From NCBI GenBank assembly GCA_020633315.1, contig JACKDV010000012.1, positions 1 through 32,000 on the forward strand: a DNA stretch of 32,000 nucleotides, given 5' to 3'. Position 1 is the stretch's first letter; every line of letters starts with the position of its first letter. Below the pieces are notes generated by a model. That model had not been told where the DNA came from, ran no database searches, and worked only from the letters and a program-made list of their open reading frames with translations. Both the position numbers and the translations under genes were made by a program. Shown here in pieces: positions 1-21,281 of this stretch. The DNA comes from Myxococcales bacterium (GTDB lineage Bacteria > Myxococcota_A > Polyangia > Nannocystales > Nannocystaceae).

Positions 1-29
1 GCTATTGTCCATGACGTCGAGCCGCTGCG

Positions 30-1532
30 TCAGTGCAGCGGGGCACCAAGCCGGGCCCGCTGTACGTCGGCCTCGTCGATCTCGTAGCCCCGCTCGTCGA
101 CCAGCCAGGTTCGCCAGCCGTTGGCATCCCCCTCCACGAAGGCCAGGCGAACCCGCGACCAGGGGTCGGTCCAGCCTGGGGCGGACCCCACGACGATCTC
201 GAGCGGAACGTCTGCGTCCCGCGCGGCCCTCTCGAGGTGGTGGAGCGTGGGCTCGTCTCGGTGGACCCATGGGGCCGGGATGAGCTCGTCGAGGAATCCC
301 CAGCGTAGGCGCACCGCGCCGTGCAATCGGCCGTACTCGTAGAGGGCATACAGCGACTTGACGTTGGCATCGAGGCGGCGCCGCAGCTTCTCGTGATCGC
401 CCTCGCGTAGGTAGGTGGCCAGCTTCTTCGGATCGCCGAATGGCCGGCTGATGCCACAGGACCCCTGGATGAGCAGCTCGGGCGTGATCTTCAGGGTCCG
501 CCCCCGCTTGTTGATCCTCTTGGACTTCTGCGGCGGCCCCAGCTCGGCGAGGTGGCGAGAGCCCGGGTCGAACGCCAGCGCTCGCAGCAGTGCCCGGACG
601 TCCATGGCGCCGATGAGGTCGAAGGTCGCCAGACGCTCGCGGGCCGCCGCCAGCTCGCCCTCGCCGATGAAGGTCACTAGCTCGTGGGCGGCCACATCGA
701 GCAGCGCCAACGCCCGGGGGTCCTTGGCCGGAAAGGCGTAGAGGAGCACTCGACGGAGCTTGGCCAGCTCCGCGGCATGGGCGAGGCGCTTGCGTTCGAA
801 AGTCTCGCGGGCACGCGCGATCTCCTCGGGAGAGCTTCGGTGGAGGGCAGGGTTGCGACGGAGACCCTCGATTCGATCTCGTACCGCGCGACGGGTGTCG
901 AGCAGGAGCTTCCCCGGGTCGGCGATCATCGACCAGCGCTCGTCGGGCCGGATGGTCACGGCCGCGCTCTTGCGCTTGAAGCTGGGCGTGTCCGCGGTGA
1001 GAGAGAACCACTTGGTGCGCGCGGCCACGAAGTCGATGACCTCCTGAGGCTGCATCGGCTCACCGTGGGCATCGAGCACGGCCAGGGCGAGGCGTTGCGC
1101 AGACCAACTGCGGAGGTTGGCGTCCTTCCAGGCTTCGTCCAGTTCCTCGAAGCGGAGCGCGACCTCGGGTCCGGGGAGGGGCTCGAGCTTCGGGGGAGCG
1201 GGGGTGGGGCGAGAGACCTTCGGAGGGCGTAGGCCGAGGCGGAAGACCCAGAGGTGGAGGTCGTCGTCGTGGGGGTCCAGGCTATAGTGGTCGCCCTCAC
1301 GGTAGACGGGAGCCCGGCCTGGCTTGCAGCGCTTGAGCGAAAGGAGGGCACGCTCAGCCGGTGCGAGCCCGATCTCGGCGAACCGGGCTGCGACCTCGAC
1401 GAGGGTCATGGGCTCGCCATGCTCGAGCAGGGTGACCAGGAGCAGCGAGTAGGTGTTGGCCTCGCGGTGATCCTTGACCGCGTCGAGGCTGGGCACGTCG
1501 ATGCCCAGGGCATCACACCACGTGTTGCTCAT
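30..1532 (-). CDS. Hypothetical 500-aa island protein with two similar winged-helix/HARE-HTH-like modules
   Basis: ORF 30..1637 trimmed to the ATG at 1532, which has AGGA 8 nt upstream and sits 23 nt after the stop of the preceding small ORF. Strong GC3 bias. Internal duplication: 'LLEHGEPMTLVEVAARFAEIGL' versus 'VLDAHGEPMQPQEVIDFVAARTK'. No catalytic motif recognised. Confidence 0.6.
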   Translation of the reverse strand: MSNTWCDALGIDVPSLDAVKDHREANTYSLLLVTLLEHGEPMTLVEVAARFAEIGLAPAERALLSLKRCKPGRAPVYREGDHYSLDPHDDDLHLWVFRLGLRPPKVSRPTPAPPKLEPLPGPEVALRFEELDEAWKDANLRSWSAQRLALAVLDAHGEPMQPQEVIDFVAARTKWFSLTADTPSFKRKSAAVTIRPDERWSMIADPGKLLLDTRRAVRDRIEGLRRNPALHRSSPEEIARARETFERKRLAHAAELAKLRRVLLYAFPAKDPRALALLDVAAHELVTFIGEGELAAARERLATFDLIGAMDVRALLRALAFDPGSRHLAELGPPQKSKRINKRGRTLKITPELLIQGSCGISRPFGDPKKLATYLREGDHEKLRRRLDANVKSLYALYEYGRLHGAVRLRWGFLDELIPAPWVHRDEPTLHHLERAARDADVPLEIVVGSAPGWTDPWSRVRLAFVEGDANGWRTWLVDERGYEIDEADVQRARLGAPLH

Positions 1533-1555
1533 CGTGTGGATCCTGCTCGTGGCAG

Positions 1556-1813
1556 TCAGTCGTCGAAGACCTCGGCGAGGGACGTCGCCGTGACCGCACG
1601 ATCGAACCATCGCTGGAGGAGGTTCTCGTCCTTGCACGCAGCCACCCGCTCGCGCAGCTCGTCAGTGGGCTCGAGCCCCCGCGTGTCGAGCAGTCGCTCC
1701 AGCATGCGGGCCATGCCCTTGGTCTCGCCCTGGAGGATGCCGTCGGCCCTACCTTCGGCGAGGCCCTCGGCACGGCCCTTGGCGAGGAGCTCGTCTCGGA
1801 TGGTGGCGTACAT
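1556..1813 (-). CDS. Free-standing Rpn C-terminal-tail paralogue (RpnS-like small protein, 85 aa)
   Basis: It starts MYATIRDELLAKGRAEG, identical to an internal segment of the upstream Rpn protein. It ends ...DELRERVAACKDENLLQRWFDRAVTATSLAEVFDD, which parallels the Rpn C-terminus. It lies 15 nt downstream of the Rpn stop. Confidence 0.55.
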   Translation of the reverse strand: MYATIRDELLAKGRAEGLAEGRADGILQGETKGMARMLERLLDTRGLEPTDELRERVAACKDENLLQRWFDRAVTATSLAEVFDD

Positions 1814-1815
1814 CT
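1773..1815. repeat. 43-bp direct repeat, copy 1 (identical to 2007-2049)
   Basis: cggcccttggcgaggagctcgtctcggatggtggcgtacatct is read identically at both positions. It spans the start codon of the small ORF. Confidence 0.9.
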
Positions 1816-1828
1816 CGGCCGAACAGCG

Positions 1829-2842
1829 TCAATCGTCGAAGATCTCCGTGAGGGACGACGCTCTCACGGCGCGATCGAACCACCGCTGGAGCAGGTCCTC
1901 GTCCTCGCAGGTGGCTACTCGTTCACGCAGCTCATCGGTGAGCGTGAGCCCACGGTTGTCCATCAATCGCTCCAGCACCCGAACAATGCGGGCGTGGCCC
2001 TCGGCGCGGCCCTTGGCGAGGAGCTCGTCTCGGATGGTGGCGTACATCTGGCGGGTTTCCTTGCTGGCGGACTCGAGCAGTATACCGCGGACCGGGGACT
2101 CGGGCCCGAACACGGAGAGGAAGTAGGTCAGGAACGGCTTGACGGCCTTGGCACCCCAAGTCTCGGCGACCACGTTGCCCAGGACCCCAAGCAAGGCGGC
2201 GCGTTCGCCGTCGGTGGCTTCGGGGTGGTGGTACAGCCACAGCATGGTACGTGCCATCTCGGCCAGGGCGAGGCCGCGGTTGCGGACGAGCTGGTCGTGG
2301 GTGACCTGATCCCCGAGGACCGACTCCCCGAGGTCGTCGACCGCGAACGCGAGCTCGACGGGGGAGGGGAAGGCTTCGAGCAGCTCGGGCGGCACGTCGA
2401 GCATCTCGGAGAGGCGTTGCGGCATCGTCCAGCCCTTCGGCCCCTGGTAGAGCAGCACGGGAGCGACGAGCGGGACCTTCTTGGTGCCCTTGTGTTCGCT
2501 GAGATAGCGCTCGTAGAGCCGTCCCACGTAGACGACGAAGCGAGCCGCCATGACCGGGTCGGGTGTGCTCTGGTGCTCGAGCACGACGTAGATCGAGATC
2601 CTGCGCGTGGAGCCGCTCAGCGCGATGGAGTACAGGATGTCGCTGGTACGGTGCTCGAGCTCGGGATCGATGAACGAGCTCGGCTCGACGCGGAGCGTCT
2701 TCCAGTCGAGCCGGCTGGTGAGCGCCGCTGGAAGCACCTGGCGCAGCTCGGCGGCTGCGGCCTCGGGATTGGTGAAGATCCGCTTCACGAGGCCGTCGTG
2801 CGGGTTGTGGGCGACGACGTCGTCGGACTTGCGCTTGGTCAT
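1829..2842 (-). CDS. Rpn family recombination-promoting nuclease / putative transposase (YhgA-like, PD-(D/E)XK)
   Basis: N-terminal 'HDGLVKRIF' and 'SDILYS...IYVVLEHQSTPDPVMAARFVVY' match the YhgA/Transposase_31 signature as I recall it. Typical C-terminal tail 'DELRERVA.C.DEDLLQRWFDRAV'. Confidence 0.8.
   Translation of the reverse strand: MTKRKSDDVVAHNPHDGLVKRIFTNPEAAAAELRQVLPAALTSRLDWKTLRVEPSSFIDPELEHRTSDILYSIALSGSTRRISIYVVLEHQSTPDPVMAARFVVYVGRLYERYLSEHKGTKKVPLVAPVLLYQGPKGWTMPQRLSEMLDVPPELLEAFPSPVELAFAVDDLGESVLGDQVTHDQLVRNRGLALAEMARTMLWLYHHPEATDGERAALLGVLGNVVAETWGAKAVKPFLTYFLSVFGPESPVRGILLESASKETRQMYATIRDELLAKGRAEGHARIVRVLERLMDNRGLTLTDELRERVATCEDEDLLQRWFDRAVRASSLTEIFDD
2007..2049. repeat. 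43-bp direct repeat, copy 2 (inside the rpn gene, spanning the internal ATG at 2047-2045)
   Basis: Identical to 1773-1815. Flanking sequence in the two tail copies has clearly diverged. Confidence 0.9.
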
Positions 2843-2905
2843 CGAGGCTCTCGGCGGACTCTATAGCGTGCGAGGGATTGGCGGGCATTCGGGACTGGGT
2901 CGAGA

Positions 2906-4135
2906 TCACCCACCGCGGGTCGCATGCTCGATCGCCGCGCCCGCTCTCTCGAGGCCTTCCTGCAGCGCCCGGTCGTGCAGGTGGGCGTAGCGTGCGGTGG
3001 TCTGCGGCGACTTGTGCCCGAGCACCTTGCCCACGACCGACAGCGGGACCCCGGCCGAGACCGCGTCGCTGGCCCATGAGTGACGCAGATCATGGAGCCG
3101 CACGTCCTCGAGCCCCGCATGGGCCCGCAGCGTCCGCCAGGCCCGCTGGACGTTCGAGAGCCGCGTCCCCGACTCGCTGGTGCAGACCAGCCCGATCCGC
3201 CCCACCTTGCCCCGTTCCGCGCGCAAGAACTCCACGGCCTGCCGTGTGAGGGGGACCGACTTGGCGCCCGTCTTGGAGGTGGGCAGCCGCAGTTGTCGAT
3301 GGCGCCAGTCCACATATTCCCAGCGCAGGTCCAGCACCTCGCCCAGCCGCATGCCCGTCAGCGATAACAGCCGAAAGAGCTGCACGTATCCGGGCGCGAG
3401 CCCTCCTTTGGTCTGGGGCCCCGCCTCGAGCGCATGGACGAGGGCGGCCTCGAGCCGCTGCCGCTCCTCGGGGGACAGGTAGCGCTCGACCTTCCGATCG
3501 CTGGTGGCCTTGAGCCGAGCCGCCGGATTTTGAGTGATGGCGCCGAGATCTTCCGCGTGTCGAAAGCAGATCCGCAGCACGTCTCGGAGCTTGCGCCATG
3601 TCCCGGCCGGAACCTCCCGCTGGATCCGCTCCAGGTCCGCGGCCGTGACCGCGTCCACCCGCGCGCGTATGAAGCTCGTCCGCGATCGCAGGTGCTTGCT
3701 GATGCGGTACCGGTCGGTCTTGATCGCGCCCTCGGACTTGGCCGTGCCGAGTTGCCCCGCGACCTTGCAGTAGCTGCCGAGGTACCAGCCCTCGTCACCC
3801 TTCTCGCCGAGGAGATCGACCATCCGCAGGGCACCGCGCTCGCGTCGTCGTTCCTGCTGGGGGTCCTGGCCCTGGTCGACCGCGCTGAGAACGGTACGTG
3901 CCATCGCTCGGGCCTGGGGGATGGTCAGCTCGAGCCCGCCGAGCTTCTGGCGGCGCTGGGTCCCGCTCACGCGGTAGCGCACGAAGAACGTGGTCGCCCC
4001 CTTGGGGGTGATGCGAAGGTGCAGGGTCCGGACCGACTGCTTGCCGCTGTCGTCCCAAAGCTCGATGCGACGGCCCTCTTCACTGGCTTGGACTCGAGCT
4101 TGGCGGATGGCGGCGGTGGTCAGCGGCACCTCCAT
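2906..4135 (-). CDS. int: Tyrosine-type site-specific integrase (P4-like, with N-terminal arm-binding DUF4102-type domain)
   Basis: C-terminal catalytic motifs 'HDLRHSWAS' and 'LGHKSPQTTARYAHL', with an upstream 'TGMRLGEVLDLRW' Arg box. N-terminus 'LHLRITPKGATTFFVRYRVSG' is typical of P4-type integrases. The start is taken at the ATG at 4135; the ORF is open to 4186. Confidence 0.85.
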   Translation of the reverse strand: MEVPLTTAAIRQARVQASEEGRRIELWDDSGKQSVRTLHLRITPKGATTFFVRYRVSGTQRRQKLGGLELTIPQARAMARTVLSAVDQGQDPQQERRRERGALRMVDLLGEKGDEGWYLGSYCKVAGQLGTAKSEGAIKTDRYRISKHLRSRTSFIRARVDAVTAADLERIQREVPAGTWRKLRDVLRICFRHAEDLGAITQNPAARLKATSDRKVERYLSPEERQRLEAALVHALEAGPQTKGGLAPGYVQLFRLLSLTGMRLGEVLDLRWEYVDWRHRQLRLPTSKTGAKSVPLTRQAVEFLRAERGKVGRIGLVCTSESGTRLSNVQRAWRTLRAHAGLEDVRLHDLRHSWASDAVSAGVPLSVVGKVLGHKSPQTTARYAHLHDRALQEGLERAGAAIEHATRGG

Positions 4136-4290
4136 AGGATATCTCGGGGGCACACCGGGGGCACAACCTTTCGCAAGAGGCCGCAATCCGCGCGCAAGGC
4201 GCGATGTCCAGAATGCGCCTAAATAGGCCGGTTTAAGGCGAAATTCAAACTTGCGGCCGCTTCAACAAACCCCCGCAAACCCGCATGGCT

Positions 4291-4337
4291 CTGCCCTGAT
4301 AAGGCAGAGGTCGGAGGTTCAAGTCCTCCCACGCCCA
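4291..4337 (+). other. 3' fragment of tRNA-Ile(GAU): anticodon arm through discriminator. Putative att core / attR.
   Basis: ctgcc-CTGATAA-ggcag (anticodon GAT), variable loop aggtc, T arm ggagg-ttcaagt-cctcc, acceptor 3' strand cacgccc, discriminator a. Upstream sequence (ccgcaaacccgcatggct) has no D arm and no matching 5' acceptor strand gggcgtg. Confidence 0.7.
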
Positions 4338-4342
4338 CTAGG

Positions 4343-4367
4343 AAAGCCCCGCGTAGCGGGGCTTTTT
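4343..4367 (+). terminator. Intrinsic terminator following the tRNA fragment
   Basis: aaagccccgc-gta-gcggggcttt perfect GC-rich stem followed by a T5 tract. Confidence 0.75.
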
Positions 4368-4556
4368 CGTTTGGGCGGGGGCGGCTGTGGGCCATCTGGA
4401 CCGGCGCGGGTCCACTGCGTGTCAAGGCTCGGGAGACACCACGACCGATAGCGATTGCGGGAGGTCGGGACAAGGCCAGGAATCGCCCACGGAGCGCAGA
4501 ACGAGGGGCGGATGGTTGGTCAGGCGGCGAGACTCGTAGGCCAACGGACTCGTCCG

Positions 4557-5612
4557 TCAGTCGTACCAGTCGAGGCAAGTGAGCGCCTCTTCGGTCATCC
4601 CATAGACCCCAGCATTCGCGGTCGGTCGAAGCACGTTCCGTCGGAGCCATCCCTGGATCGTGCTCGCTGGAACTCCCCGGGAGAGCAACTGCTGACGCGT
4701 CATCGTCCCGTCCGTCGTCGTCTTCTTGGAGGCAGTCGTCTTCTTGGAGGCAGTCGTCTTCTTGGAGGCAGTCGTCTTCTTGGAGGCGGTCGTCTTCTTG
4801 GAGGCGGTCGTCTTCTTGGAGGCGGTCGTCTTCTTGGAGGCGGTCGTCTTCTTGGAGGCAGTCGTCTTCTTGGAGGCGCCCCTCCTCCCGCGATTCGACT
4901 CTACCTCGTCATCGATGACCACGCCGAAGATCTCCGATAGCTCCCCGACCAACCGACGCTCATCCTCGATCTCTCCGACGATCTGTGCCGCCGACTCCAC
5001 CAATTGCCCCGGCTCGACTCCTCGCAGCTCGAACAAGAGCTGAGGCTGTTCGTCGAGCCGAATCCCCACGCCGTACATCGCGGCCGCCACGTGCTTGCAC
5101 ATCGTCGCCCAGTCGGGACAACTGCATCCGAGGCGAATGGCACGTGGCTCGGGGAACAGCCCCTTGCCGGGCTCGGTGACGGCCTCCATGACCTCGGCGC
5201 CCACGCGGCCCTCGAGCAGCTCGATCACCGACGACAGTCGACCCGAGCACCGCTTGCGCAGCGCAGACCAGCGCGCACGGGGGACCGGATCGATCTGCAC
5301 GCGGACCTCGTACAGCGAGTGGCCGGACACCAGCGCAGTGATCTCACCCGGGGCGATCCACAGGTCGAGCACCGCGCCCTGTCGAAGGTAGGTGCGCCCG
5401 CGTGGCAGGCGGTTGGCGTAGTCGTGATACCGCTCGAGGTTGTGGCACCACGCCTTTCCCCAGATGGTCTGGGCGAAGCTGCGGCCCTCGCCGCGAACGG
5501 GCGCGGGATCGCGGCCGAGTCGCTGGTGGAGCTGACGGCGGGTCGGGGCCGGCTCGTAGTCGCGCTCGGGGCCCCAGGAGGACCAGAAGCTGCGGCGTCT
5601 CCTACGAGGCAT
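4557..5612 (-). CDS. SWIM zinc-finger protein (partner of the SNF2 helicase) with a lysine-rich ASKKTT repeat linker and a C-terminal HTH-like tail
   Basis: CxC...CxH motif 'CSCPDWATMCKHVAAAMY'. N-terminal region 'FAQTIWGKAWCHNLE...RLPRGRTYLRQGAV...VSGHSLYEVRVQI' is typical of bacterial stand-alone SWIM proteins. The ATG at 5612 overlaps the upstream gene's stop by 11 nt. Confidence 0.8.
   Translation of the reverse strand: MPRRRRRSFWSSWGPERDYEPAPTRRQLHQRLGRDPAPVRGEGRSFAQTIWGKAWCHNLERYHDYANRLPRGRTYLRQGAVLDLWIAPGEITALVSGHSLYEVRVQIDPVPRARWSALRKRCSGRLSSVIELLEGRVGAEVMEAVTEPGKGLFPEPRAIRLGCSCPDWATMCKHVAAAMYGVGIRLDEQPQLLFELRGVEPGQLVESAAQIVGEIEDERRLVGELSEIFGVVIDDEVESNRGRRGASKKTTASKKTTASKKTTASKKTTASKKTTASKKTTASKKTTASKKTTASKKTTTDGTMTRQQLLSRGVPASTIQGWLRRNVLRPTANAGVYGMTEEALTCLDWYD
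4717..4878. repeat. Nine tandem copies of an 18-bp unit (gtcgtcttcttggaggc[a/g]) encoding (ASKKTT)x9 in the SWIM protein
   Basis: Read directly. The only variation is a/g at the last unit position, in the pattern a,a,a,g,g,g,g,a,g. Confidence 0.95.
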
Positions 5613-8265
5613 CGAGCGCGCGCTCCAGGTCGAGTCGTACGGTGGCCATGAGCTGCTGTGTGCTCATCTCGGTGAGCGAAGCGGCCCCGTCGAACGACAG
5701 GACCTCGTCGGCCAGCGCTTGCTTGCTCGCGATCATGGCATCGATTCGCTCCTCGAGGGTGCCTCGGCACACGAGCTTGTGGACCAGGACGTTGCGCCGC
5801 TGGCCGATTCGATACGCTCGATCGGTGGCCTGGTTCTCGATGGCCGGGTTCCACCAGCGATCGAAGTGCACCACGTGCGAGGCGGCGGTCAGGTTGAGGC
5901 CCGTGCCGCCGGCCTTGAGCGAGATGACGAAGAACGGAGGCCCGTCCTCGTCCTGGAACTGCTCGACGAGCTGGGCGCGACGGCGCACGGGGGTCCGTCC
6001 GTCCAGCCGGAGCCCGGGTCGCCCGAAGGCGTTGGCGAGGAACTGCTCGAGTGGGCGCGTGGCCTCGCGGAACTGGGTGAACACGAGGACCCGCTGCTGG
6101 CGCGCTGTCCACGACTCGCAGAGCTCGGCCAGACGCTTGAGCTTGCCGCTGCTCGTCGGGTCCCAGACCCCATCGCCCAGCCAGTGCGAGGGATGGTTGC
6201 AGATCTGCTTGAAGCGCTGGAGATAGGCGAGGATCAGGCCGCGACGCGCCATGCCGTCGGCCTGCTCGACGTCACCGCGCAGCGAGTCCACCGCATCCTG
6301 GTACAGCGCCGCCTGTTGCTTCGCGAGCCCACAGTAGGCGACGACCTCGGTCTTGTCGGGCAGGTCTGGCACGATGGAGGGATCGGTCTTGAGCCGACGC
6401 AAGATGTAGGGCGCCACCAGCCGGCGGACGGGACCGTAGCCCTCTCCGCGCCGCTCCGTGGCTCGCACCGCGCGGCGAAACGCCGCCCGGCTGCCCAGCA
6501 GACCCGGGCACGCGAAGTCCATCAGCGACCACAGATCCTCGATGCTGTTCTCGATCGGCGTGCCCGTGAGCACCAGCCGCGCCCGGGCCCGTAGCTTCTT
6601 GGTGGCGCGTGCTTGATGGGTCCCTGGGTTCTTGATCGCCTGCGCCTCGTCGAGTATCGCCAGACCCCAGTCGTGATCGAGCAACCACTGGGTCCGAGCG
6701 AGCGTACCGTAGGTGGTCAATACCAGATCGACCCCGTCCACCTCGCGCCGAAGGGTCGCGATGCCATCGGGGCCCGCCGAGCGATGAGCGATGCGCACCT
6801 GCAGGTCGGGCGCGAACCGGGCCGCCTCGGCCTGCCAGTTGCTCAGCAGTGAGGCGGGAACGACCACCAGATGGGGACCTCCGACCCCCTCGTCGTCGAG
6901 CACCAGCAGCAACGCGAGGATCTGGATCGTCTTGCCCAGCCCCATGTCGTCGGCCAGACACCCGCCGAGCCCGAGGTGACAGAGCAGCCTCGCCCACGCC
7001 ACTCCCTTGCGTTGGTAGCTGCGCAGCTCGCCTACGAGGCGAGGGCCGGGATCGCAGCTCTGTCGCGTCTGCCCCAGCTGCTCGAGCACCCCGCGTAGCC
7101 ACTTGCCGGCAGACACTGCGGTCCACACCGGGCCGGAGCCCGTCGCGTCGTCGTCGGGGGACGACTCCGTGCTTGCTCCGGCCAGCCACCGCATGCCCTC
7201 GGCGAACGACAGCATGCCTTCCCGGGCTGCTTGCTCGATCGCGGCGAAGTGCTCGAGTGCTTGCCGGAGCCGCTCGGGATCGACCGCGACCCACCGCCCG
7301 CGAACCAATCGCAGGCCTGCGGCACCTCGAAGCAGCGCCCGTCGATCCTTGGCCGACAGCGTGAGACCGTCGAGCGCGAGCGAGACGTCGAAGTCGACGA
7401 GGCTCGCGAAGCCGAGCGTGCTGGGCTGCCGCTGGCCGACCGTGGCGTTGACTCGCACACGGCGAGCACCCCCATGCCACCAGTCGGGCACGCGCACCAG
7501 CACGCCCGCGGCCTCGCAGGCGGGAATCTGCTGCAGGAACGCGAACGCCTCCTCGGGGGTCCAACGAACCGCACGGTAGGCCTGACCGCTCGAGACGAGC
7601 TCGGCCATCAGAGGGCTGGTCGCCGCGGCGAGCTCGAGAGGGCGAAGCAATCGCAGCAGTGCCTGTCGATCGTCGGCAAGGGTGGTGAGCGCGTGCTCGA
7701 GCGTGCGGTGCAGGGGGCGACCCGAAGAATCGAGACCGTCGACGTAGGTCGCCACGAACGCGAACGGGTAGCTCGGATCGCGCTTGTTCTCGGCGAGATG
7801 GAAGTACACCCGACCGATGCCGTGCCAGGCGGCGTTCTGGCCCTCGAGCCATGGCCCGAGCTCGCCTCCGTGTCGACCGACGGCATGCCGTGCGGCTTGC
7901 TCCATCTGCCGCCAAGCATCGTCGAGCGTGGAGCGATCCACGTACTCGGCACCGAGCATCGGGGGGACCTGCAGCAACAAGCGATCGAATGTGCCGTCGG
8001 GGGGCACCAAGGGCTCGTCCTCGTTCAGGGTCCCCGTGCGACAGAGCACTTCGTAGAAGGCCCGGCCGAGTGCTCGCCCGAACGCGAGCTGTGGCGGCAG
8101 CTCGGCCCGGAGCATGGGGCCCGCCAGGTACAGCAGGCCAGGGCCCAGACCCCTCCCGAACGCTCGTCGCAGCGCGGCGGTGGAACGCGTGGCTGTGGGG
8201 GCGGTCTCGGCATCCACCCGCAGACGGCCACGGGGAGTGATCGACAGCGTCGGTGTGCTCGACAT
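5602..8265 (-). CDS. SNF2/SWI2-family DEAD-like helicase (ATPase) with a long N-terminal SNF2-associated region
   Basis: Motif I 'LADDMGLGKT', motif II 'LDEAQAIKN', motif III 'LTGTPIEN', and helicase-C motifs 'SLKAGGTGLNLTAASHVVHFDRWWNPAIENQATDRAYRIGQ'. The start is set at the ATG at 8265 (MSSTPTLS...). The ORF extension to 8556 overlaps the cysK-like 3' end and has Arg/Pro/Trp-rich junk composition. Confidence 0.85.
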   Translation of the reverse strand: MSSTPTLSITPRGRLRVDAETAPTATRSTAALRRAFGRGLGPGLLYLAGPMLRAELPPQLAFGRALGRAFYEVLCRTGTLNEDEPLVPPDGTFDRLLLQVPPMLGAEYVDRSTLDDAWRQMEQAARHAVGRHGGELGPWLEGQNAAWHGIGRVYFHLAENKRDPSYPFAFVATYVDGLDSSGRPLHRTLEHALTTLADDRQALLRLLRPLELAAATSPLMAELVSSGQAYRAVRWTPEEAFAFLQQIPACEAAGVLVRVPDWWHGGARRVRVNATVGQRQPSTLGFASLVDFDVSLALDGLTLSAKDRRALLRGAAGLRLVRGRWVAVDPERLRQALEHFAAIEQAAREGMLSFAEGMRWLAGASTESSPDDDATGSGPVWTAVSAGKWLRGVLEQLGQTRQSCDPGPRLVGELRSYQRKGVAWARLLCHLGLGGCLADDMGLGKTIQILALLLVLDDEGVGGPHLVVVPASLLSNWQAEAARFAPDLQVRIAHRSAGPDGIATLRREVDGVDLVLTTYGTLARTQWLLDHDWGLAILDEAQAIKNPGTHQARATKKLRARARLVLTGTPIENSIEDLWSLMDFACPGLLGSRAAFRRAVRATERRGEGYGPVRRLVAPYILRRLKTDPSIVPDLPDKTEVVAYCGLAKQQAALYQDAVDSLRGDVEQADGMARRGLILAYLQRFKQICNHPSHWLGDGVWDPTSSGKLKRLAELCESWTARQQRVLVFTQFREATRPLEQFLANAFGRPGLRLDGRTPVRRRAQLVEQFQDEDGPPFFVISLKAGGTGLNLTAASHVVHFDRWWNPAIENQATDRAYRIGQRRNVLVHKLVCRGTLEERIDAMIASKQALADEVLSFDGAASLTEMSTQQLMATVRLDLERALDAS

Positions 8266-8308
8266 CGCAGGGACCCACAGAGGCTGCCCTGTATTGGGGT
8301 GGCTGTGC

Positions 8309-8512
8309 AAGGATCTCGGCCCTTCGAGTGTCCGTGACCCCGCGCTCGGGCCATCGCAGGGGTAGGATCTCGTCCTCGTATGCGGCCACCCGCTCGCGCA
8401 GCTCGACGGCGATGAGCCACTCCAGCACGCGGGCCATGGCGCTGGTCTTGCCCAGCGCCCGATCCTCGATGACGCCCTTGGCCTTCCCCTCCAGCGATGA
8501 GCTGCTCTCGGC
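8309..8512 (-). pseudogene. Orphan remnant of an Rpn C-terminal tail (third copy in the window), with no nuclease domain
   Basis: Minus-strand translation 'LEGKAKGVIEDRALGKTSAMARVLEWLIAVELRERVAAYEDEILPLRWPERGV' aligns with 'AEGRADGILQGETKGMARMLERLLDTRGLEPTDELRERVAACKDENLLQRWFDRAV' of ORF 1556-1813. There is no in-frame stop before it runs into the SNF2 gene. Confidence 0.5.
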
Positions 8513-9442
8513 TCAGCCGCCAAGCCACCCCTTCGACAAGTAGCGGTCCATCCCATCGGGCAGGACGGCCACCACCGGCTCGTCCCCGCCGATGCGCTCC
8601 GCCACCCGCAGCGCCGCGACCACGGCCGTGCCGGCCGAGCCTCCGACGAACAGCCCCTCCTCGCGGATGAGCCTCCGGGTCATCGCGAAGGACTCCTCGT
8701 CCGAGACGGTCTCCGCCTCGTGCACCACCGAGCGATCGAGGTTGGTGGGCGCGACCGATCCCCCGATCCCCTCCACGGCATAGCGCCCGTCGGGACCCAG
8801 CTCCCCGGTGCGCACCCAGTGCGCCAGCACGGATCCCTCGGGATCGGCGAGCACGAGCCGCGCGCTCGATCCCCGCGCCGCCATGCATCGCCCCACTCCG
8901 GTCAGCGTGCCCCCCGTGCCCGCTCCCGCCACGAAGGCTGCCAGGCGCCCGTCCACCTGTTGCAGGATCTCGGGCCCGGTCCCGTGCTCGTGAGCGGCAA
9001 CGTTGACGGGGTTCTCGAATTGATCGGTCAGGAACCACCCGCGCTCTGCCGCCATGGCCCTCGCCACGTTCTGGAAATTGCGAGGATCGGAAGGCGGCGC
9101 GTCGTCGGTCACGATCACCTGGGCCCCCATCGCCGCGAGCGTGCGTCGCTTGTCCTCGGACATCTTCTGCGGCATCACGCAGACCAGCCGGTACCCATGG
9201 TGAGCCGCGACGAGGGCGAGCCCGATCCCGGTGTTGCCGGCGGTCGCCTCGATGAGCGTGGCGCCCGGCTCCAGCACGCCGCGCGCCCTCGCATCCTCCA
9301 CGATCGACACCGCGATCCGATCCTTGATGCTCCCGCTGGGGTTGAGGTGCTCGCACTTGACGAGCACCGGGGCGCCACGGCGGGGAATGTGTCGAAGCGG
9401 CAGGAGCGGCGTGTTCCCCACGGCATCGAGCAGGCTCGGCAT
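8513..9442 (-). CDS. cysK: Cysteine synthase / O-acetylserine sulfhydrylase family PLP enzyme
   Basis: 'NPSGSIKDR' (PLP lysine), 'TAGNTGIGLA', and 'AGTGGTLTG' motifs. Full-length 309 aa. Confidence 0.8.
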   Translation of the reverse strand: MPSLLDAVGNTPLLPLRHIPRRGAPVLVKCEHLNPSGSIKDRIAVSIVEDARARGVLEPGATLIEATAGNTGIGLALVAAHHGYRLVCVMPQKMSEDKRRTLAAMGAQVIVTDDAPPSDPRNFQNVARAMAAERGWFLTDQFENPVNVAAHEHGTGPEILQQVDGRLAAFVAGAGTGGTLTGVGRCMAARGSSARLVLADPEGSVLAHWVRTGELGPDGRYAVEGIGGSVAPTNLDRSVVHEAETVSDEESFAMTRRLIREEGLFVGGSAGTAVVAALRVAERIGGDEPVVAVLPDGMDRYLSKGWLGG

Positions 9443-9540
9443 GCCCGCTTCCTAGCACGGCCGACCACTCCCGAGCGGGGGGCGCTCCGTGAGCCCCGAT
9501 GCCACGCGACGACGGCGCTCGAGCGCGTCCCCGAGCCGAG

Positions 9541-10116
9541 CTACTGCTGCTTCTGATAGGTACCCACCAGCTCGCCGTGGCCGAGCACGTGTCCCTGCAT
9601 GGCCCGCTCGAGCTCGGCCTTGGTGGGCGCGTCGAGGTCGAGGGTGGTGTCGAGCGCGTAGAGCTTGTGGAAGTACCGGTGTCGCCCGCTCGGCGGGCAT
9701 GGGCCTCCGTAGCTCTGCTTGCCCCAGTCGTTCGTGCCGGTCTTGGCCCCGGCGGGAAGCGAGTCGGCTGCGTCGGCGGGCAGCGAGCCGAGGTCGGGAG
9801 GCAGGTCGAAGACCACCCAGTGCGTCCACACGCGCCGGGGGGCGTCGGGATCATCGACGACGAGGGCGAGGCTCCGCGTGCCCTCGGGGACCTCGGTCCA
9901 CGACAGCGGGGGCGAGAGGTCCTCTCCGTCGCAGGTGTGCTCGGGTGGGATGCTCCCACCGTCCTCGAAGGCAGCAGAGCTCAGCTTCATGGTCTCGGGT
10001 CCTTCGTCGAGGGGATCGGAGGCCTCGGGACCCATGGGACCCGTGCGGCACGACGCGAGCAGCCCGACCAGAACGAGCCCGCAGGGCCTCGTGTGGATCC
10101 CTCGCTTCCTCGACAT
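9541..10116 (-). CDS. YbhB/YbcL-family PEBP (Raf kinase inhibitor-like) lipoprotein
   Basis: 'DDPDAP', 'THWVVFDLP', and 'GRHRYFHKLYALD' motifs. Signal peptide with lipobox 'LLASC' if the start is the ATG at 10116. Confidence 0.8.
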   Translation of the reverse strand: MSRKRGIHTRPCGLVLVGLLASCRTGPMGPEASDPLDEGPETMKLSSAAFEDGGSIPPEHTCDGEDLSPPLSWTEVPEGTRSLALVVDDPDAPRRVWTHWVVFDLPPDLGSLPADAADSLPAGAKTGTNDWGKQSYGGPCPPSGRHRYFHKLYALDTTLDLDAPTKAELERAMQGHVLGHGELVGTYQKQQ

Positions 10117-10276
10117 CGTCCGTGCTCCTCGTTCCCATGTCCCACGCGCGCTCCAGGGAGGCCAGCGCAGTTGCTGCGGGGCCCGGAGGGGCACCGGCCT
10201 TCGACGAGCACATGCGCTGGCGGGGGGCGCCCCCCGGCCAGGGGGGGACTGCGCAGGTCGATCCTCCCTATCATGG

Positions 10277-11287
10277 ATGGGTATGTCGTCGGCGCTGAGC
10301 TACAACGAGAGCAGGAACTACTCCTCCGCCCAGATCGAGATGATCCAGGGCGTCGTGGGAGCCACCGCCGACGGTCGGTGGGGCCCCTCGACCGTCGATG
10401 CGGTGGAGCGGTGGCAGAAGGACCAGGGGCTGAGCGCGGACGGCAAGGTGGGGCCGCAGACGCTGGTGGCGATGTTCGTGCAGGCGCGCACGGCCGACCC
10501 GGGGCTGTGGCCGGTCGTGAACGTGGGCGCGTGGTCGGGGCAGAGCTCGCTCAACAACCCGAACGACGACGTGGCCTTCTGTGCGGCCCACGGGATCAAT
10601 CGGCTGTACGTGGTGGTCAACGATCACTCCACGTCGCGGTCGGCCCGTGACTTCGACACCTTCACGCGCAGCAAGATCGTCACCCTGAGCAAGGTGGCCC
10701 GGGACGCGGGAGTCGAGGTCCACCTGATGAGCTGGATCATGCCGCACGCGACCTACCTGAGGCAGGCGGCGGAGCAGCTGATCCCGCTGGTGGCCGACAC
10801 GGGAGCGCGCTCGCTGCAGTGGGACGCAGAGGAGCCGTGGACGCAGGCCGTGGACCCGCCCTCGTACGAAGAGGCGGCGCAGCAGGTGGCGAGGGAGCTC
10901 GCGAGCCTGACGGTGCCGATGGGCGTGACCGGGATCGGCTACACGCCGGCGGACAAGTTCGGGCCCCTGGCCGCGGTCTGCAAGACCCTGGTGCCGCAGT
11001 GCTACGCGACCAGCGGGGGGAGCCTCAAGCCCGAGTCGGCGGTGTCGAGCTGCGTGGACCGCTGGCGCAGCAAGGGCTTCGGCGGCGCGAGCCCGGCGTG
11101 GGAGATTGGCCTGGCGGCCTATCGCCAGGAGGGCATCGAGGGGCACACGGTGGCGTCGGCGATGACGGCCAGCCTCGACAACGCCCGCGCCTATCAATTC
11201 GACTCGGTCGTCTACTGGAGCCTGCGGCAGATCCGGGGCTCGGCCGAGGTGACCCAGGTGATCGGGTCGATCCGAAATCAGGGCTGA
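10277..11287 (+). CDS. Peptidoglycan-binding (PG_binding_1) domain protein with an uncharacterised C-terminal domain
   Basis: 'DGRWGPSTVDAVERWQKDQGLSADGKVGPQT' is the classic PG-binding repeat. The start is taken at the ATG at 10277 (alternative 10283). The upstream part of ORF 9719.. is antisense to the PEBP gene. Confidence 0.65.
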   Translation: MGMSSALSYNESRNYSSAQIEMIQGVVGATADGRWGPSTVDAVERWQKDQGLSADGKVGPQTLVAMFVQARTADPGLWPVVNVGAWSGQSSLNNPNDDVAFCAAHGINRLYVVVNDHSTSRSARDFDTFTRSKIVTLSKVARDAGVEVHLMSWIMPHATYLRQAAEQLIPLVADTGARSLQWDAEEPWTQAVDPPSYEEAAQQVARELASLTVPMGVTGIGYTPADKFGPLAAVCKTLVPQCYATSGGSLKPESAVSSCVDRWRSKGFGGASPAWEIGLAAYRQEGIEGHTVASAMTASLDNARAYQFDSVVYWSLRQIRGSAEVTQVIGSIRNQG

Positions 11288-11298
11288 CGCCCGCGGCG

Positions 11299-11317
11299 CC
11301 ATGCCCTGCGGGCATGG
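11299..11317 (+). terminator. Stem-loop downstream of the PG-binding gene
   Basis: ccatgccc-tgc-gggcatgg, a perfect 8-bp stem 12 nt after the stop. It is followed only by 'att', so the U tract is weak. Confidence 0.4.
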
Positions 11318-11411
11318 ATTCGTGGCTGTGCGGTGACACACGCCTGGCTGCCTGGGCTCGAATCGGGGGCCGGGATTTGCACGCCGGCTCCACCCGTGCG
11401 ACTGACCGCCC

Positions 11412-12698
11412 GTGCGATTCGAAGACATGGGCCTGATCCCAGAGCTGGTGAAGGCCGTTCACGACGCGGGCTACCGCGAGCCCACGCCAATCCAGCGAGC
11501 CACGATCGGGCCCGCGCTCGCGCGCCGCGACATCGTCGGCTGCGCCCAGACCGGCACCGGCAAGACGGCGGCCTTCGCCCTGCCCACGCTGCAGCACATC
11601 GACGAGACGGCGGGCGACGACCCGCGGATCCGCACCCTGGTGCTGTCGCCCACCCGCGAGCTCGCGGCCCAGATCGGCGAGAGCTTCGCGAGCTACGGGC
11701 GCCACCTCGAGATCTGGCACGCGGTGATCTTCGGGGGCGTGAGCGACAAGCCGCAGGTGAAGGAGCTGCGTCGCGGCATCGACGTGCTGGTGGCCACGCC
11801 CGGGCGCCTGCTCGACCTGATGGGGCAGGGCCACGTGGACCTGGGAGCGGTCGACACCCTGGTGCTCGACGAGGCCGATCACATGCTCGACATGGGCTTC
11901 TTGCCCGACGTGCGGCGGATCATCGCGGCGCTGCCCAAGCGGCGGCAGAACCTGCTGTTCTCGGCGACCATGCCCCCGGAGATCCGGGCGCTGGCGGCCG
12001 AGCTGCTGCACGACCCGGTGGACGTGGCGGTGGCGGCCGTGGCCGCGCCGGCCGACAACGTGGACCAGCGCCTCTACTTCGTGGACAAGGCCGACAAGCG
12101 CAAGCTGCTGCTGCGGCTGGTCCGCGATCCGGCGATGTCGCGCTCGCTGGTGTTCAGCCGCACCAAGCACGGCGCCAACCGAGTGGCCCAGTTCCTCGAC
12201 AAGGGCGGGGTGCGCTCGGCGGCGATCCACGGCAACAAGTCCCAGGGGGCCCGCACCCGCGCCCTGGAGGCGTTCAAGCGGGGGGACATCTCGGTGCTGG
12301 TGGCCACCGACATCGCGGCCCGGGGCATCGACGTGGAGGGGGTGACCCACGTGATCAACTTCGACCTGCCCAACGTGCCCGAGACCTACGTGCACCGCAT
12401 CGGTCGCACCGCGCGAGCGGGAGCCTCGGGGGTGGCGATGTCGCTGTGCGACGACGAGGAGCGCGAGTACCTGGTGGACATCGAGCGCCTGGTGGGCCAG
12501 CACCTGCGGCGGGTGGAGGACCACGATTTCCCGCCCAGTTCCGCCCTGCCGCCGATGACCGATCTCGAGGGGCGACGCCGAGCTCCGCCCAAGCGACCCT
12601 CGGGCGGAGGCAAGGCGCAGGGCCGGCCAGCGGGTCGTGGGCAGCCGCGCGCGAAGGCTACCAGCGGCCGACGACGATCTGCCCGCCGATCGCGTTGA
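11412..12698 (+). CDS. rhlE: ATP-dependent DEAD-box RNA helicase (RhlE-like) with a basic C-terminal tail
   Basis: Q motif 'TPIQ', 'AQTGTGKT', 'DEAD', 'SAT', '[10 protein letters not shown]'. GTG start at 11412 gives 'MRFEDMGL', typical of the family (alternative ATG at 11427). Confidence 0.85.
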
Positions 12699-13689
12699 CG
12701 AAGCGCTTGAAGCCTCGCACGGCCGCGAATTCGTAGGTGAGGCCGAGGCCGATGTAGAGCTTGTGGGGCAGGGGAATCTTGCCCACGAGCTTGAACGGCA
12801 TCGACAGGCCCTTGTCCTTCTGCAGGGTGTCGTCGGCGAAGCGCAGCCGCGAGAAGCCCACGCCGGCACCGACGGTGGAGAAGTAGTACTTGCCCCCGAA
12901 GGCGAACAGCGCGGCGACGTGACCGTAGTTGGCCTTGGTGCGGCCGTTGAGATCGTCGCGGAGCTTGGCGCCGAGCAGGCCGCCGGCCACGGCGTACATG
13001 CCGAAGCCCGGGCTGAGGTTGACGCCCAGGCCCCAGTCCATCGCATACGAGGCGTGCCCGGCGTTGAATGCCGTGGGCTCGCGGCCCCCGTCGCGCCAGT
13101 GGCTGTAGGTCGCGCCCTGCATGGTGAAGGCGCCCAGCAGCGCGTGCTCCCGCTTCTCGCGACGCTCCTTGCGGCGCTTCTGGCCGGCGCTGAGCTCCTC
13201 CTCGGCCGCCGGCTCCTCGGCTGCCGGCTCCTCGGCTGCGGGGGCGGGGTCGGTGGTCGCGGGGGACGGCGTGGTGGTGGTCGAGCCCGCGGCCGCCGGG
13301 GTCGCGGGGGAGGTCGAGGCGGCTGGAGCGGGAGCCGGGGCCGGAGCAGGATCCACCGGGGGGGGCGTGGGGGCCGGCGCAGGAGCGGGCTCGGTGGCCA
13401 TGCGCACGCCGGTGATGTTGGCCTTGGGCACGGACTGCACCCGCCCGTCGCCCATCACCAGCACCACCGACTGGCCGTCGGCGCGCAGCAGCTCTCCCGA
13501 GAGCGTGCCGCCGGACATCTCCACGATCACCTGCCGTCCCACGAGCGCGTCCCAGGTAGCATCGTCGACCGCGGGCGAGGTGGTGGCGACGGGAGCCGCA
13601 GCCGGCTGGGCATCGGCGATCGCCGGGCTGGCCAGCGCCATCGTCACCCCGAGCACGGCGAGGGCACGCCTGGGACCGAGCGAATGCAC
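12658..13689 (-). CDS. Secreted protein: signal peptide, small beta-rich N-domain, Pro/Ala-rich linker, C-terminal OMP-like beta-barrel
   Basis: Signal '[19 protein letters not shown]'. Linker '[23 protein letters not shown]...[13 protein letters not shown]'. The C-terminal ~160 aa have alternating hydrophobic/Gly-rich strands ending in 'VVGRW' (aromatic terminus). Confidence 0.55.
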
Positions 13690-13975
13690 GCCCCGAGCAT
13701 GACGCGTGGCTCATGGAGCATACAAGGGCGGGGGGACGTACGGTCGCGGCAGACTCGCTCGCCATGCGCAGGAGCGCGTCCCTGGTGGTCTCGTCGTTGC
13801 TGATGGCGTCGTGCGGGGCACGGGCGCGGTGGAGTACGCGCTGAGCCTACTCGATGCCGAGGGCCAGCCGATGGCGCCCGATCGCCCCGGCGTGATCCAC
13901 CTGCGGACCTGCGAGAGGTGAGGGACCTCGCCGCCGAGCTCCCCGGGCCACCGATCCAAGCGTCCGACAAAGCGC

Positions 13976-14004
13976 TTGCTGGGCCGAGGGGCGGGGGCTA
14001 GATT
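13976..14004 (+). promoter_or_regulatory. Candidate sigma70-type promoter for tRNA-Ala
   Basis: TTGCTG (13976-13981), a 17-nt spacer, then TAGATT (13999-14004), about 35 nt upstream of the tRNA. Confidence 0.35.
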
Positions 14005-14039
14005 CCCCCCGCGCCCGAGCCCGGGCGGCTCTTCAGCGC

Positions 14040-14112
14040 GGGGGATTAGCTCAGCTGGGAGAGCGTCGGCTTTGCAAGCCGAAAGTCACCGGTTCGATCC
14101 CGGTATCCTCCA
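14040..14112 (+). tRNA. tRNA-Ala(UGC)
   Basis: Canonical cloverleaf: acceptor GGGGGAT/ATCCTCC with the G3:U70 alanine identity pair, D arm gctc-agctggga-gagc, anticodon arm tcggc-TTTGCAA-gccga, T arm accgg-ttcgatc-ccggt. CCA is not fully encoded. Confidence 0.9.
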
Positions 14113-14118
14113 CCCTCT

Positions 14119-14153
14119 GGGGCCCGTTTCCGGCGAGAACGGGGGCGGGCCCC
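14119..14153. terminator. GC-rich stem-loop between tRNA-Ala and the convergent lipoprotein gene (possible bidirectional terminator)
   Basis: ggggcccg (14119-14126) pairs with cgggcccc (14146-14153). An alternative inner stem is cccgtt/aacggg. No clear U tract. Confidence 0.4.
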
Positions 14154-14159
14154 GTCGCA

Positions 14160-14738
14160 TCAGGGGTAGGTGCAGCGCAGGAACGCGCCGTTGCCGAAGA
14201 TGTCGACGCAGTCCATGCCGTCGGGGCACATGCCCTCGGAGCAATCGAGGACGCAGCCCTGCGGCTGCATCGGCGGGCCCTCGCACACGGGGACCGCGTC
14301 GCCGCTGGTGGGGGCGGGGCACTCGCTCGCATCCATGCATTCGATGGAGCAGTAGTTGCCGCCGCCGAAGGGAGGCCAGCACACGTCGTAGGGCTCGGGG
14401 CACTCGGCCGCGTCCATGCACGGGGGGTAGGCCGGTCCCGGGGGCTCGCCGCTGGAGCTGCTGCCGCCGTCGCCCGTGCTGCTCCCGTCGGTGCCCGGGG
14501 CGGTCGTCGTCGCGCCGTCGTCGGTGCTCTCGTCCATGCCGGTGCTGCCCGTCGCTCCCACCGAGCCCGCGCTGGTCATCGTCATGGAGGTGTTGGTGGT
14601 GGCGCCGTCGCTGCCGGTGCTGCTGCCCGTGCCGGAGTCGTCCTCGCTCTCGCCACCCGCTCCGGTGGTGGGCGCGGGTCCACACGCCATGGTCAGCAGG
14701 ACGGCCGTCGCAAACGTTCCCATCGAGAATCTAGTCAT
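14160..14738 (-). CDS. Lipoprotein with a Ser/Thr/Gly/Asp-rich linker and a 12-Cys C-terminal domain
   Basis: Start at the ATG at 14738 gives 'MTRFSMGTFATAVLLTMAC' (lipobox). The C-terminus is 'CMDAAECPEPYDVCWPP...CSIECMDASECP...CEGPP...CVLDCSEGMCPDGMDCVD...LRC'. Confidence 0.65.
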   Translation of the reverse strand: MTRFSMGTFATAVLLTMACGPAPTTGAGGESEDDSGTGSSTGSDGATTNTSMTMTSAGSVGATGSTGMDESTDDGATTTAPGTDGSSTGDGGSSSSGEPPGPAYPPCMDAAECPEPYDVCWPPFGGGNYCSIECMDASECPAPTSGDAVPVCEGPPMQPQGCVLDCSEGMCPDGMDCVDIFGNGAFLRCTYP

Positions 14739-14796
14739 GTGCAAGCTCCCCCCGCACGGTACCCATGGCGATCTGCGCGGACAACCACGCCGAGGC

Positions 14797-15276
14797 TCAC
14801 GAGGACGGACGGTCGAGCGGGGCGGGGGGCTCGGCCCCCTCCCGCGCCGGCGGGCCCCCCAGCAGCACCAGGCCCACCATCGCGAAGACGAGGCCGAGGG
14901 CCTTGCGCCCGTCCATGCCCTCGTGGAAGGCCCACAGCCCCACGGGCAGCAGCACCAGCGCGGTGGCGGCATTGGAGTAGAGCGCGGCCACGCCGAGATT
15001 CCAGCCGCTGCGATACGCGAGCAGGAAGCCGAGCTCGATGAGCACCACGCAGATCCCCAGGGCGTAGCTGGTGGGGCCCAGCCGGCGCATGGCGGGCACC
15101 AGGCCCTCGCCCCCGCCGAGCCAGGGCCAGAGCAGCAGCGAGAGCACCACCGCCACCACGTAGGTGCCCAGCAGGGTGGCGGCCGGGCTGGCGTCGGGGC
15201 GGATGCCCTTCTGACACAGGTGGTAGCCGACGTTGGCGACGATGGTCAGCGTGATGGCGAGCACGTGGATCGACAT
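14797..15276 (-). CDS. Small DMT/EamA-like integral membrane protein
   Basis: About 5 hydrophobic helices ('IHVLAITLTIVANVGYHL', 'LLGTYVVAVVLSLLLWPWL', 'ALGICVVLIELGFLLAY', 'ATALVLLPVGLWAF', 'LGLVFAMVGLVLLG'). The start is ambiguous (15276 or 15300). Confidence 0.5.
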   Translation of the reverse strand: MSIHVLAITLTIVANVGYHLCQKGIRPDASPAATLLGTYVVAVVLSLLLWPWLGGGEGLVPAMRRLGPTSYALGICVVLIELGFLLAYRSGWNLGVAALYSNAATALVLLPVGLWAFHEGMDGRKALGLVFAMVGLVLLGGPPAREGAEPPAPLDRPSS

Positions 15277-15307
15277 GGGCGAGCGCCCACTGTAGACCAT
15301 GCGTGCG

Positions 15308-16423: not shown

Positions 16424-16458
16424 GCCCCCAGCATAGCCTCGGTGGACGGCGGGCTCGC

Positions 16459-21256: not shown

Positions 21257-21281
21257 GCACCGGAGACCCCACGGGGGGCGG

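Follow-up and report, generated by a model that had tools for sequence, protein, structure and literature searches.

What is a gene pair made up of an SNF2-family ATPase and a SWIM zinc-finger protein for, and does it signify anything that the pair sits beside an integrase island? The question is raised by a 32,000-nucleotide (nt) stretch of DNA from a Myxococcales bacterium of the family Nannocystaceae (contig JACKDV010000012.1, positions 1 to 32,000; hereafter the window), in which the two genes occupy positions 4557 to 8265. An earlier reading of the bare sequence (the sequence-only reading) had taken them for a newly noticed candidate module, in the kind of context where defence or anti-mobile-element genes accumulate. 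Here, we found that the pair is already known and common in bacteria and that the window's instance is an ordinary member. The explanation that we favour, in which we place about as much belief as doubt, is that the two proteins form a two-subunit, DNA-anchored translocase of double-stranded DNA (dsDNA), which clears or remodels DNA-bound proteins as an accessory genome-maintenance factor.

The ATPase, its SWIM partner, and their linkage

The two genes and the features within them are listed below by window coordinate, together with the evidence for each; aa stands for amino acids, ORF for open reading frame, and pLDDT and pTM for the predicted local distance difference test and the predicted template modelling score of AlphaFold2.

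5602-8265, minus strand: SNF2-family ATPase gene, 887 aa (ORF and translation; Pfam DUF3670, SNF2-rel_dom, and Helicase_C)
7036-8265, minus strand: N-terminal clade-specific folded region, aa 1-410 (AlphaFold2 pLDDT 89, pTM 0.82)
7189-7578, minus strand: DUF3670 (PF12419), aa 230-359 (Pfam 2.3e-30, 105.5 bits versus a cutoff of 27.6)
5626-7038, minus strand: SNF2 ATPase core of two RecA-like lobes, aa ~410-880 (Pfam; 1Z63; motifs read)
5602-5612, minus strand: 11-nt overlap ATGCCTCGTAG, with the SWIM ATG inside the end of the SNF2 gene and TAG as the SNF2 stop (read directly)
4557-5612, minus strand: SWIM zinc-finger partner gene, 351 aa (ORF and translation)
4923-5555, minus strand: conserved SWIM-protein core, aa ~20-230, about 210 aa (homolog alignment, 47 invariant columns)
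5091-5126, minus strand: zinc-binding signature C163-x-C165-x6-C172-x-H174 (invariant in 30 homologs)
4717-4877, minus strand: 18-bp tandem repeat encoding (ASKKTT)x9 (tandem repeat finder, 8.9 copies, 98% identity)
4560-4712, minus strand: small C-terminal winged-helix-like module, aa 301-351 (predicted structure, pLDDT 93-96)

The linkage of the two genes was analyzed in 80 loci kept from a scan of one genome per species, which also served for the flank comparisons reported below. In 77 of these loci, spread over many phyla, the SWIM gene has a full-length SNF2 ortholog directly upstream on the same strand; of the other three, L049 has only 327 nt of upstream sequence, and L006 and L060 are really without an SNF2 gene upstream. 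The distance from the SNF2 stop to the SWIM start, measurable in 64 loci, has a median of 6 nt and is at most 60 nt in 58 of them (10 overlaps, 32 gaps of 0 to 20 nt, and 16 gaps of 21 to 60 nt). In the window, the 11-nt overlap is present as the sequence-only reading described it, and the ATGNNNCGTAG junction recurs, together with a GGAG about 10 nt upstream, in L081 and L085, the two closest full contexts. The SNF2 gene of L085 is split into two ORFs of 476 and 308 aa (L085:7370-10011), perhaps as a pseudogene or through an assembly error. When all ORFs in the flanks of the 80 loci were clustered, no third conserved gene emerged, the next-best cluster being present in 5 loci. These data indicated that nothing beyond the two genes belongs to the conserved unit.

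The two components also occur as natural single polypeptides. These include the "SNF2/RAD54 helicase" of Wolbachia phage WO (L090:5992-8832), with SWIM at aa 125 to 148, DUF3670 at aa 541 to 672, and SNF2; a 1162-aa protein encoded on the conjugative plasmid pS44-2 of Aeromonas salmonicida (L091:8989-12477), with SWIM, DUF3670, SNF2, and Helicase_C; and an 1149-aa protein of Escherichia coli E2348/69 with the same domain order as the plasmid protein. All of these fusions place the SWIM core N-terminally, which is the reverse of the operon order. Because such fusions exist, we reasoned that the SNF2 and SWIM proteins associate physically; with the adjacency and the short gaps, they agree with the proposal of the sequence-only reading that the two genes probably form one functional module and a complex.

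The mechanical ORF of the SNF2 gene extends to an ATG at 8556. The supported start is the ATG at 8265, since the closest homolog (L001, 70% identity over query residues 1 to 883) aligns from residue 1, the ortholog in Paraliomyxa miuraensis is 888 aa long, and positions 8309 to 8509 are a relic of an Rpn gene described below. All ATPase motifs were read intact, as had been claimed (DDMGLGKT, DEAQ, TGTP, GGTGLNLT, and QATDRAYRIGQ), and Pfam placed SNF2-rel_dom at aa 417 to 693 (5.5e-59) and Helicase_C at aa 708 to 821 (2e-20). The best solved relative of the ATPase core is that of Sulfolobus SsoRad54 (1Z63, E 8e-118, over aa 410 to 879). The roughly 420 residues that precede the core had been described as a region of unknown function. 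This stands insofar as the model of the N-terminal region has no significant fold match by Foldseek in the PDB, RapA structures included, and it needs correction insofar as the region contains DUF3670.

In the SWIM protein, the core is modelled with a pLDDT of mostly 87 to 97 over aa 21 to 200, with the exception of the block at aa 61 to 70 (pLDDT 69). The SWIM assignment rests on the invariant zinc-binding motif and on the homologs, since the Pfam SWIM match of the window protein (aa 163 to 180) scores under the curated cutoff (17.3 versus 19.6 bits); the fused phage WO homolog scores 25.1 bits against the same model. A stand-alone SWIM protein, as the sequence-only reading had it, is thus present. 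An exact-sequence search for this protein returned no record. When the SWIM family profile was run against PDB sequences, nothing matched, and Foldseek comparison of both AlphaFold2 models with the PDB gave nothing significant, the best hit being ZSWIM8 (E 0.36).

The core is followed by the (ASKKTT)x9 linker, which is polycationic and disordered (pLDDT below 50), and by the folded C-terminal module. Both had been pointed out earlier, the latter as a helix-turn-helix-like tail, and both proved to be real features. A basic tail (at least 40 aa with at least 20% lysine plus arginine after the core) was present in 51 of 55 orthologs, whose tails have a median length of 104 aa and a median content of 27% lysine plus arginine. 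Judged by composition, the basic tail is a family-wide trait. Some SWIM homologs score against the histone-like HC2 model, or bear HTH_3 or MarR domains instead. The 98% identity among the repeat copies suggests a recent expansion, and copy number, and with it tail length, possibly varies among strains; the Paraliomyxa tail carries a different, KKAST-type repeat.

The C-terminal module is predicted to fold as strand-helix-helix-strand-strand-helix. Its resemblance to winged helices of the MerR/excisionase type is weak (Pfam MerR_1, E 0.012, sub-threshold), and its Foldseek matches to STK19, MarR, AbiEi, and Z-alpha were all non-significant. The module was found in 7 of 30 aligned close homologs and, by single-sequence phmmer, in 1 of 55 wider orthologs. 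It was therefore ruled out as a family trait, being restricted to a subset of relatives. The nine-fold ASKKTT repeat and the winged-helix end are lineage-specific decorations of the window's instance.

Clade membership and relatives

The window pair combines the ATPase core, DUF3670, an adjacent SWIM gene, and the zinc signature, and this places it in a clade already named "SWIM-associated SWI2/SNF2 ATPase (SsoRad54)" and said to be "widely present in mobile systems" (Iyer et al. 2017, PMC5512222). The clade even has a dedicated Pfam domain, so the pair is no newly noticed candidate. The likeness to SsoRad54 extends from the ATPase core, for which 1Z63 is the closest structure, to the SWIM linkage that defines the clade and that is here adjacent and overlapping. 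In contrast, the solved archaeal structure comprises the ATPase core only, and in the window's bacterial pair SWIM is a subunit of its own, equipped with lysine-rich repeats and a winged-helix-like C-terminal module. SsoRad54 was reportedly found by Durr and coworkers in 2005 to have an ATPase stimulated by dsDNA and to translocate on dsDNA with no strand separation, and the linkage of SWIM with SNF2, as noted by Makarova and coworkers in 2002, is said to be the origin of the SWIM name.

The best NCBIfam match of the ATPase was the SCO1167/SCO6262 family helicase of Streptomyces, which shares DUF3670 and the ATPase (aa 202 to 878); the score of 563 bits lies below the equivalog cutoff of 1200, and this indicates a sister subfamily. 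Among the PADLOC defence models, the ATPase core resembles ZorD of Zorya type I (3e-114), DpdE (6e-110), and DrmD of DISARM, but these matches are confined to the generic core at aa ~410 to 875. None of the three identities was retained. For ZorD, the NCBIfam score is 277 bits versus a cutoff of 1500, and there is neither an Mrr-like nuclease nor any ZorABC neighbour; for DpdE, it is 39.3 bits versus 500, the PADLOC match is core-only, and no dpd neighbours are present; for DrmD, the two scores are 83.7 and 53.8 bits versus cutoffs of 950 and 610, and there are no drmA/B/C or methylase neighbours. Furthermore, domain-library searches found no nuclease, NADase, protease, or other effector domain in either the SNF2 or the SWIM protein.

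Two better-known bacterial proteins, YwqA of Bacillus subtilis (with its neighbour YwqB) and HelZ/Rv2101 of Mycobacterium tuberculosis (with Rv2102), presumably have the same DUF3670-SNF2 architecture and a SWIM neighbour. Genome papers name helZ and Rv2102 together, and YwqA and HelZ are bacterial SNF2 proteins described as poorly characterised, like the window's. YwqA itself is called "poorly characterized"; it interacts with RNA polymerase and is "believed" to backtrack it like RapA, and deletion of ywqA lowers viability about 8-fold under PcrA depletion and does not suppress the lethality of that depletion (PMC7385302, PMC10804225). Of the bacterial pair, the literature searched discusses YwqA only, which agrees with the statement of the sequence-only reading that no function has been assigned to it. 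Our literature search returned nothing on DUF3670 and no paper describing a SWIM-SNF2 defence system; the searched texts did not connect helZ with how mycobacteria respond to DNA damage, and a Myxococcus DNA-damage proteome paper had no SNF2 or SWIM entry. A radiation-induced SWIM protein of Deinococcus was set aside, as it belongs to a different operon with VWA/CoxE genes.

Distribution and genomic contexts

The SWIM protein has more than 5188 scored homologous matches. Among 1.84 billion cluster representatives, its homologs form 7390, 5102, and 2046 clusters (50% identity) at E values of at most 1e-3, 1e-10, and 1e-30, respectively, and the scan of one genome per species found them in at least 592 species. 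The host groups include Myxococcota, Acidobacteriota, Alpha-, Beta-, and Gammaproteobacteria, Planctomycetota, Verrucomicrobiota, Nitrospirota, Bacteroidota, Actinomycetota, Latescibacterota, and others. Across phyla, the SNF2 orthologs are 45 to 53% identical over their whole length, from about residue 5 and with the N-terminal region included. Since this conservation is very high for a 900-aa protein, a cellular target conserved to the degree of DNA or RNA polymerase fits better than an arms race. The identities mostly track taxonomy, with a few cross-phylum pairs at 80 to 84% (L044/L048, L059/L076, and L025/L043, in assemblies assigned to different phyla), which reflect either horizontal transfer or mis-binned metagenome contigs.

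Most of the species matches are chromosomal and have ordinary neighbours. The pair is also found on 134 of 72,556 plasmid records, foremost in Bradyrhizobium (38) and Streptomyces (32), and 56 of these plasmids are predicted to be conjugative; some Streptomyces plasmids carry SWIM genes beside SNF2-related genes. One of 50,697 phage records matched. The fused gene occurs in 9 of 5426 complete E. coli genomes; in E2348/69 (L092:12952-18788) it belongs to a four-gene islet between eutR and hemF, accompanied by a DUF1963-domain protein and two unannotated proteins. The pair is thus inherited sporadically, sometimes on plasmids or prophages. A uniformly core-genome distribution, which the sequence-only reading had named as speaking against defence, was not observed, given the plasmid records, the prophage, and the rare E. 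coli islet; the defence idea was weakened by other results.

Such results came from a census of the two nearest ORFs on each side of the pair in 37 loci with long flanks (142 ORFs). These ORFs match 122 Pfam families, with no family in more than 3 ORFs and no PADLOC family more than 2 times, and no recurrent defence or integrase partner was found among them; both tallies cover the 25 commonest families, and integrases or transposases that occur only once may have escaped notice. The commonest neighbours were a RecD2/YrrC-like helicase (2 to 3), IS630-type transposases (2), and protein kinases (2), and the others include ordinary enzymes such as glycogen phosphorylase, EPSP synthase, and aminotransferases. 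The PADLOC hits were to AbiEi (2 of the 37 loci), RecD-like helicases, and kinase models. As a partial remedy for hidden singletons, a panel of 21 integrases, transposases, and recombinases was compared by BLAST and matched 10 of the 80 loci. The claim that the pair lives in a defence or anti-mobile-element context was not borne out by these counts. The RecD2/YrrC-like helicase is the sole neighbour seen more than twice; it lies beside the pair in unrelated hosts (L006:6843-9680, L039:4413-6797, L044:3414-5663, and L082:6595-8796) and on Bradyrhizobium conjugative plasmids as well.

On a Variovorax plasmid, the pair adjoins ParB, toxin-antitoxin genes, and an integrase, and the fused gene of pS44-2 adjoins ParA, AbiEii, Hok, a reverse transcriptase, and an AIPR protein; in WO prophages, the SNF2 gene is adjacent to repA (PMC3173496). 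Several inspected metagenomic contexts hold insertion sequence (IS) elements, integrases, HicAB, AbiE, or a SIR2-STAND gene, including IS elements that flank the pair in L081 and L086, the SIR2-STAND gene of L085, and AbiEi/AbiEii in L089.

In the window itself, the landmarks around the pair are the following.

1559-1816, minus strand: complete extra copy of the Rpn C-terminal tail (65% aa identity, E 2e-28)
1829-2842, minus strand: Rpn/Transposase_31 gene
2906-4186, minus strand: tyrosine integrase of the neighbouring island (Pfam Arm-DNA-bind_3 and Phage_integrase)
4275-4340, plus strand: 5'-truncated tRNA-Ile(GAU), an att remnant (Rfam tRNA 26.9 bits, model positions 10-63 of 71)
4346-4367, plus strand: terminator-like hairpin GCCCCGC-gta-GCGGGGC followed by TTTTT (read directly from the sequence)
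8309-8509, minus strand: degenerate relic of the Rpn C-terminal tail (tblastn with Rpn aa 257-335, 38% identity, E 1e-4; DNA repeat family D3)
14040-14114: tRNA-Ala(TGC)

The att fragment and the Rpn-tail scar that the sequence-only reading had placed on either side of the pair were thereby confirmed, the former as a tRNA-Ile(GAU) remnant at whose position ARAGORN found no intact tRNA. The hairpin sits between this remnant and the convergent SWIM gene; it was recognised by direct reading and is absent from the list of a consensus terminator scan. The layout is the one usually seen where an island has inserted at the 3' end of a tRNA gene. Here the right-hand edge of the integrase island is marked by the tRNA remnant and its native terminator, and the island's intact tRNA end must lie beyond coordinate 1; the SNF2-SWIM pair falls outside this edge and is oriented convergently to the ancestral tRNA. 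The integrase therefore adjoins the pair because the pair neighbours the tRNA-Ile gene that was used as the integration site. No homolog of this integrase was found in the 80 related loci, and the position of the pair beside the island appears to be incidental.

The complete Rpn tail copy lies just downstream of the Rpn gene and overlaps the start of an ORF at 30-1637, and the degenerate relic is positioned between a PALP gene and the SNF2 start, so that the tail copies bracket the pair, the integrase, and the Rpn gene. Genes for a PALP enzyme, a PEBP protein, and a DEAD-box helicase lie upstream of the SNF2 gene and its partner. The G+C content of the window is about 70%; it is 67 to 70% over positions 1 to 13000 (63% near the tRNA remnant and the repeat) versus 72 to 76% over positions 13000 to 30000.

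A proposed DNA-anchored translocase and its rivals

Eukaryotic remodelers generate force by pumping DNA relative to an anchor, and the explanation that we favour would give the bacterial pair a similar logic. The SWIM zinc-finger core would contact the clade-specific N-terminal region of the SNF2 motor, and the polycationic tail, aided in the window's lineage by the winged-helix module, would anchor the complex on DNA. The motor would then pump dsDNA relative to this anchor without unwinding it, producing torsion, by which bound proteins could be stripped or repositioned: stalled RNA polymerase, nucleoid proteins, or replication or partition complexes. Of these, RNA polymerase is the only target candidate with any experimental hint. 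The role would be one of accessory genome maintenance or remodelling, with patchy inheritance and with some copies carried next to the replication and partition genes of plasmids and prophages; such copies beside repA, ParA, and ParB fit a function in keeping DNA passable for replication. Gene structure, domain content, conservation of the pair, fusions, composition of the tails, and contexts were observed; the subunit interface, the anchoring, the translocation, and the target are all steps that we infer.

A modest chance is left to the pair being cargo of mobile elements, which would aid their replication or establishment or counter silencing or restriction, the chromosomal copies having been domesticated or left behind. 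The plasmid records, many of them predicted to be conjugative, the adjacency to ParB, toxin-antitoxin, and integrase genes in Variovorax, to ParA on pS44-2, and to repA in WO prophages, the flanking IS elements of L081 and L086, and the statement of Iyer et al. quoted above all speak for it; however, 134 plasmids are a small fraction of those searched and a single phage record matched, most of the at least 592 species matches are chromosomal with ordinary neighbours, the high identities mostly follow taxonomy, and the window pair lies beyond an island boundary that is set by the tRNA remnant. We grant a small chance to anti-phage or anti-plasmid defence, in which the SWIM protein would sense or bind invading DNA and the SNF2 protein would block its replication or expose it to host nucleases. 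What recommends this is that ZorD and DpdE are the PADLOC models with which the ATPase core reaches its highest scores, that SIR2-STAND, AbiEi/AbiEii, HicAB, and, on pS44-2, AbiEii, Hok, reverse transcriptase, and AIPR genes turn up nearby, that the E. coli fusion belongs to a rare small islet, and that the pair is patchily distributed and shows signs of horizontal transfer. Yet the PADLOC matches end with the generic core and the SWIM protein has no credible defence match, neither protein bears an effector domain, and no third gene is conserved. Moreover, no defence family recurs more than twice among the 142 neighbours, most of which are ordinary, the mobile-element panel matches just 10 of 80 loci, the very high cross-phylum conservation is atypical for defence genes, and the integrase adjacency in the window is accounted for by the tRNA att site. 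No better a prospect than defence, in our estimate, is that the pair acts as a minimal bacterial "chromatin remodeler", whose H1-like subunit would coat or mark incoming, AT-rich, or silenced DNA and recruit the motor, amounting to effector-less immunity or counter-silencing; if true, this would explain why the pair is met in chromosomal islets as well as on plasmids and prophages.

It is very unlikely that the pair is a housekeeping RNA polymerase recycling factor of the RapA/HepA type with a different N terminus. E. coli RapA is, like the window protein, a bacterial SNF2 family member, and it acts on DNA-bound RNA polymerase by translocation; YwqA, for its part, is purified together with RNA polymerase, and reviews regard it as a RapA homolog. 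RapA has other N-terminal domains, however, and the NCBIfam RapA model scores 38.8 bits versus a cutoff of 576, in the C-terminal lobe only; the N-terminal region of the window protein has no fold match even with RapA structures in the database. RapA acts without a SWIM partner. In addition, the patchy spread, the plasmid copies, and the rarity in E. coli, which already has RapA, are ill-suited to housekeeping.

Several points weigh against the DNA-anchored translocase, too. Our literature search found no biochemical or genetic test of the bacterial pair of this clade, the analogy between YwqA and RapA is stated as a belief, and the orthology of YwqA to the window gene is presumed from domain architecture. 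That the SWIM core would dock on the ATPase's N-terminal region is a conjecture drawn from the fusions. The ORFs of the neighbour census were home-made calls, and its counts had no matched random set beside them; several of the inspected contexts do hold toxin-antitoxin, Abi, or mobile-element genes; these contexts, and the rarity of the islet gene in E. coli (9 of 5426 genomes), would also fit a conflict-related role.

The window locus by itself reveals no new system, because the adjacency of the island is explained by the tRNA att site. It does belong to a large clade that includes genes of model and pathogenic bacteria and in which the two-gene unit is the whole conserved system. What is added here is that there is no third partner, that a lysine-rich tail, going by the orthologs compared, is found family-wide, and that natural fusions back a physical complex. 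With these additions, an "unknown helicase" may be replaced by a concrete model, a DNA-anchored two-subunit translocase, and the family, taken as a whole, still merits experimental work.

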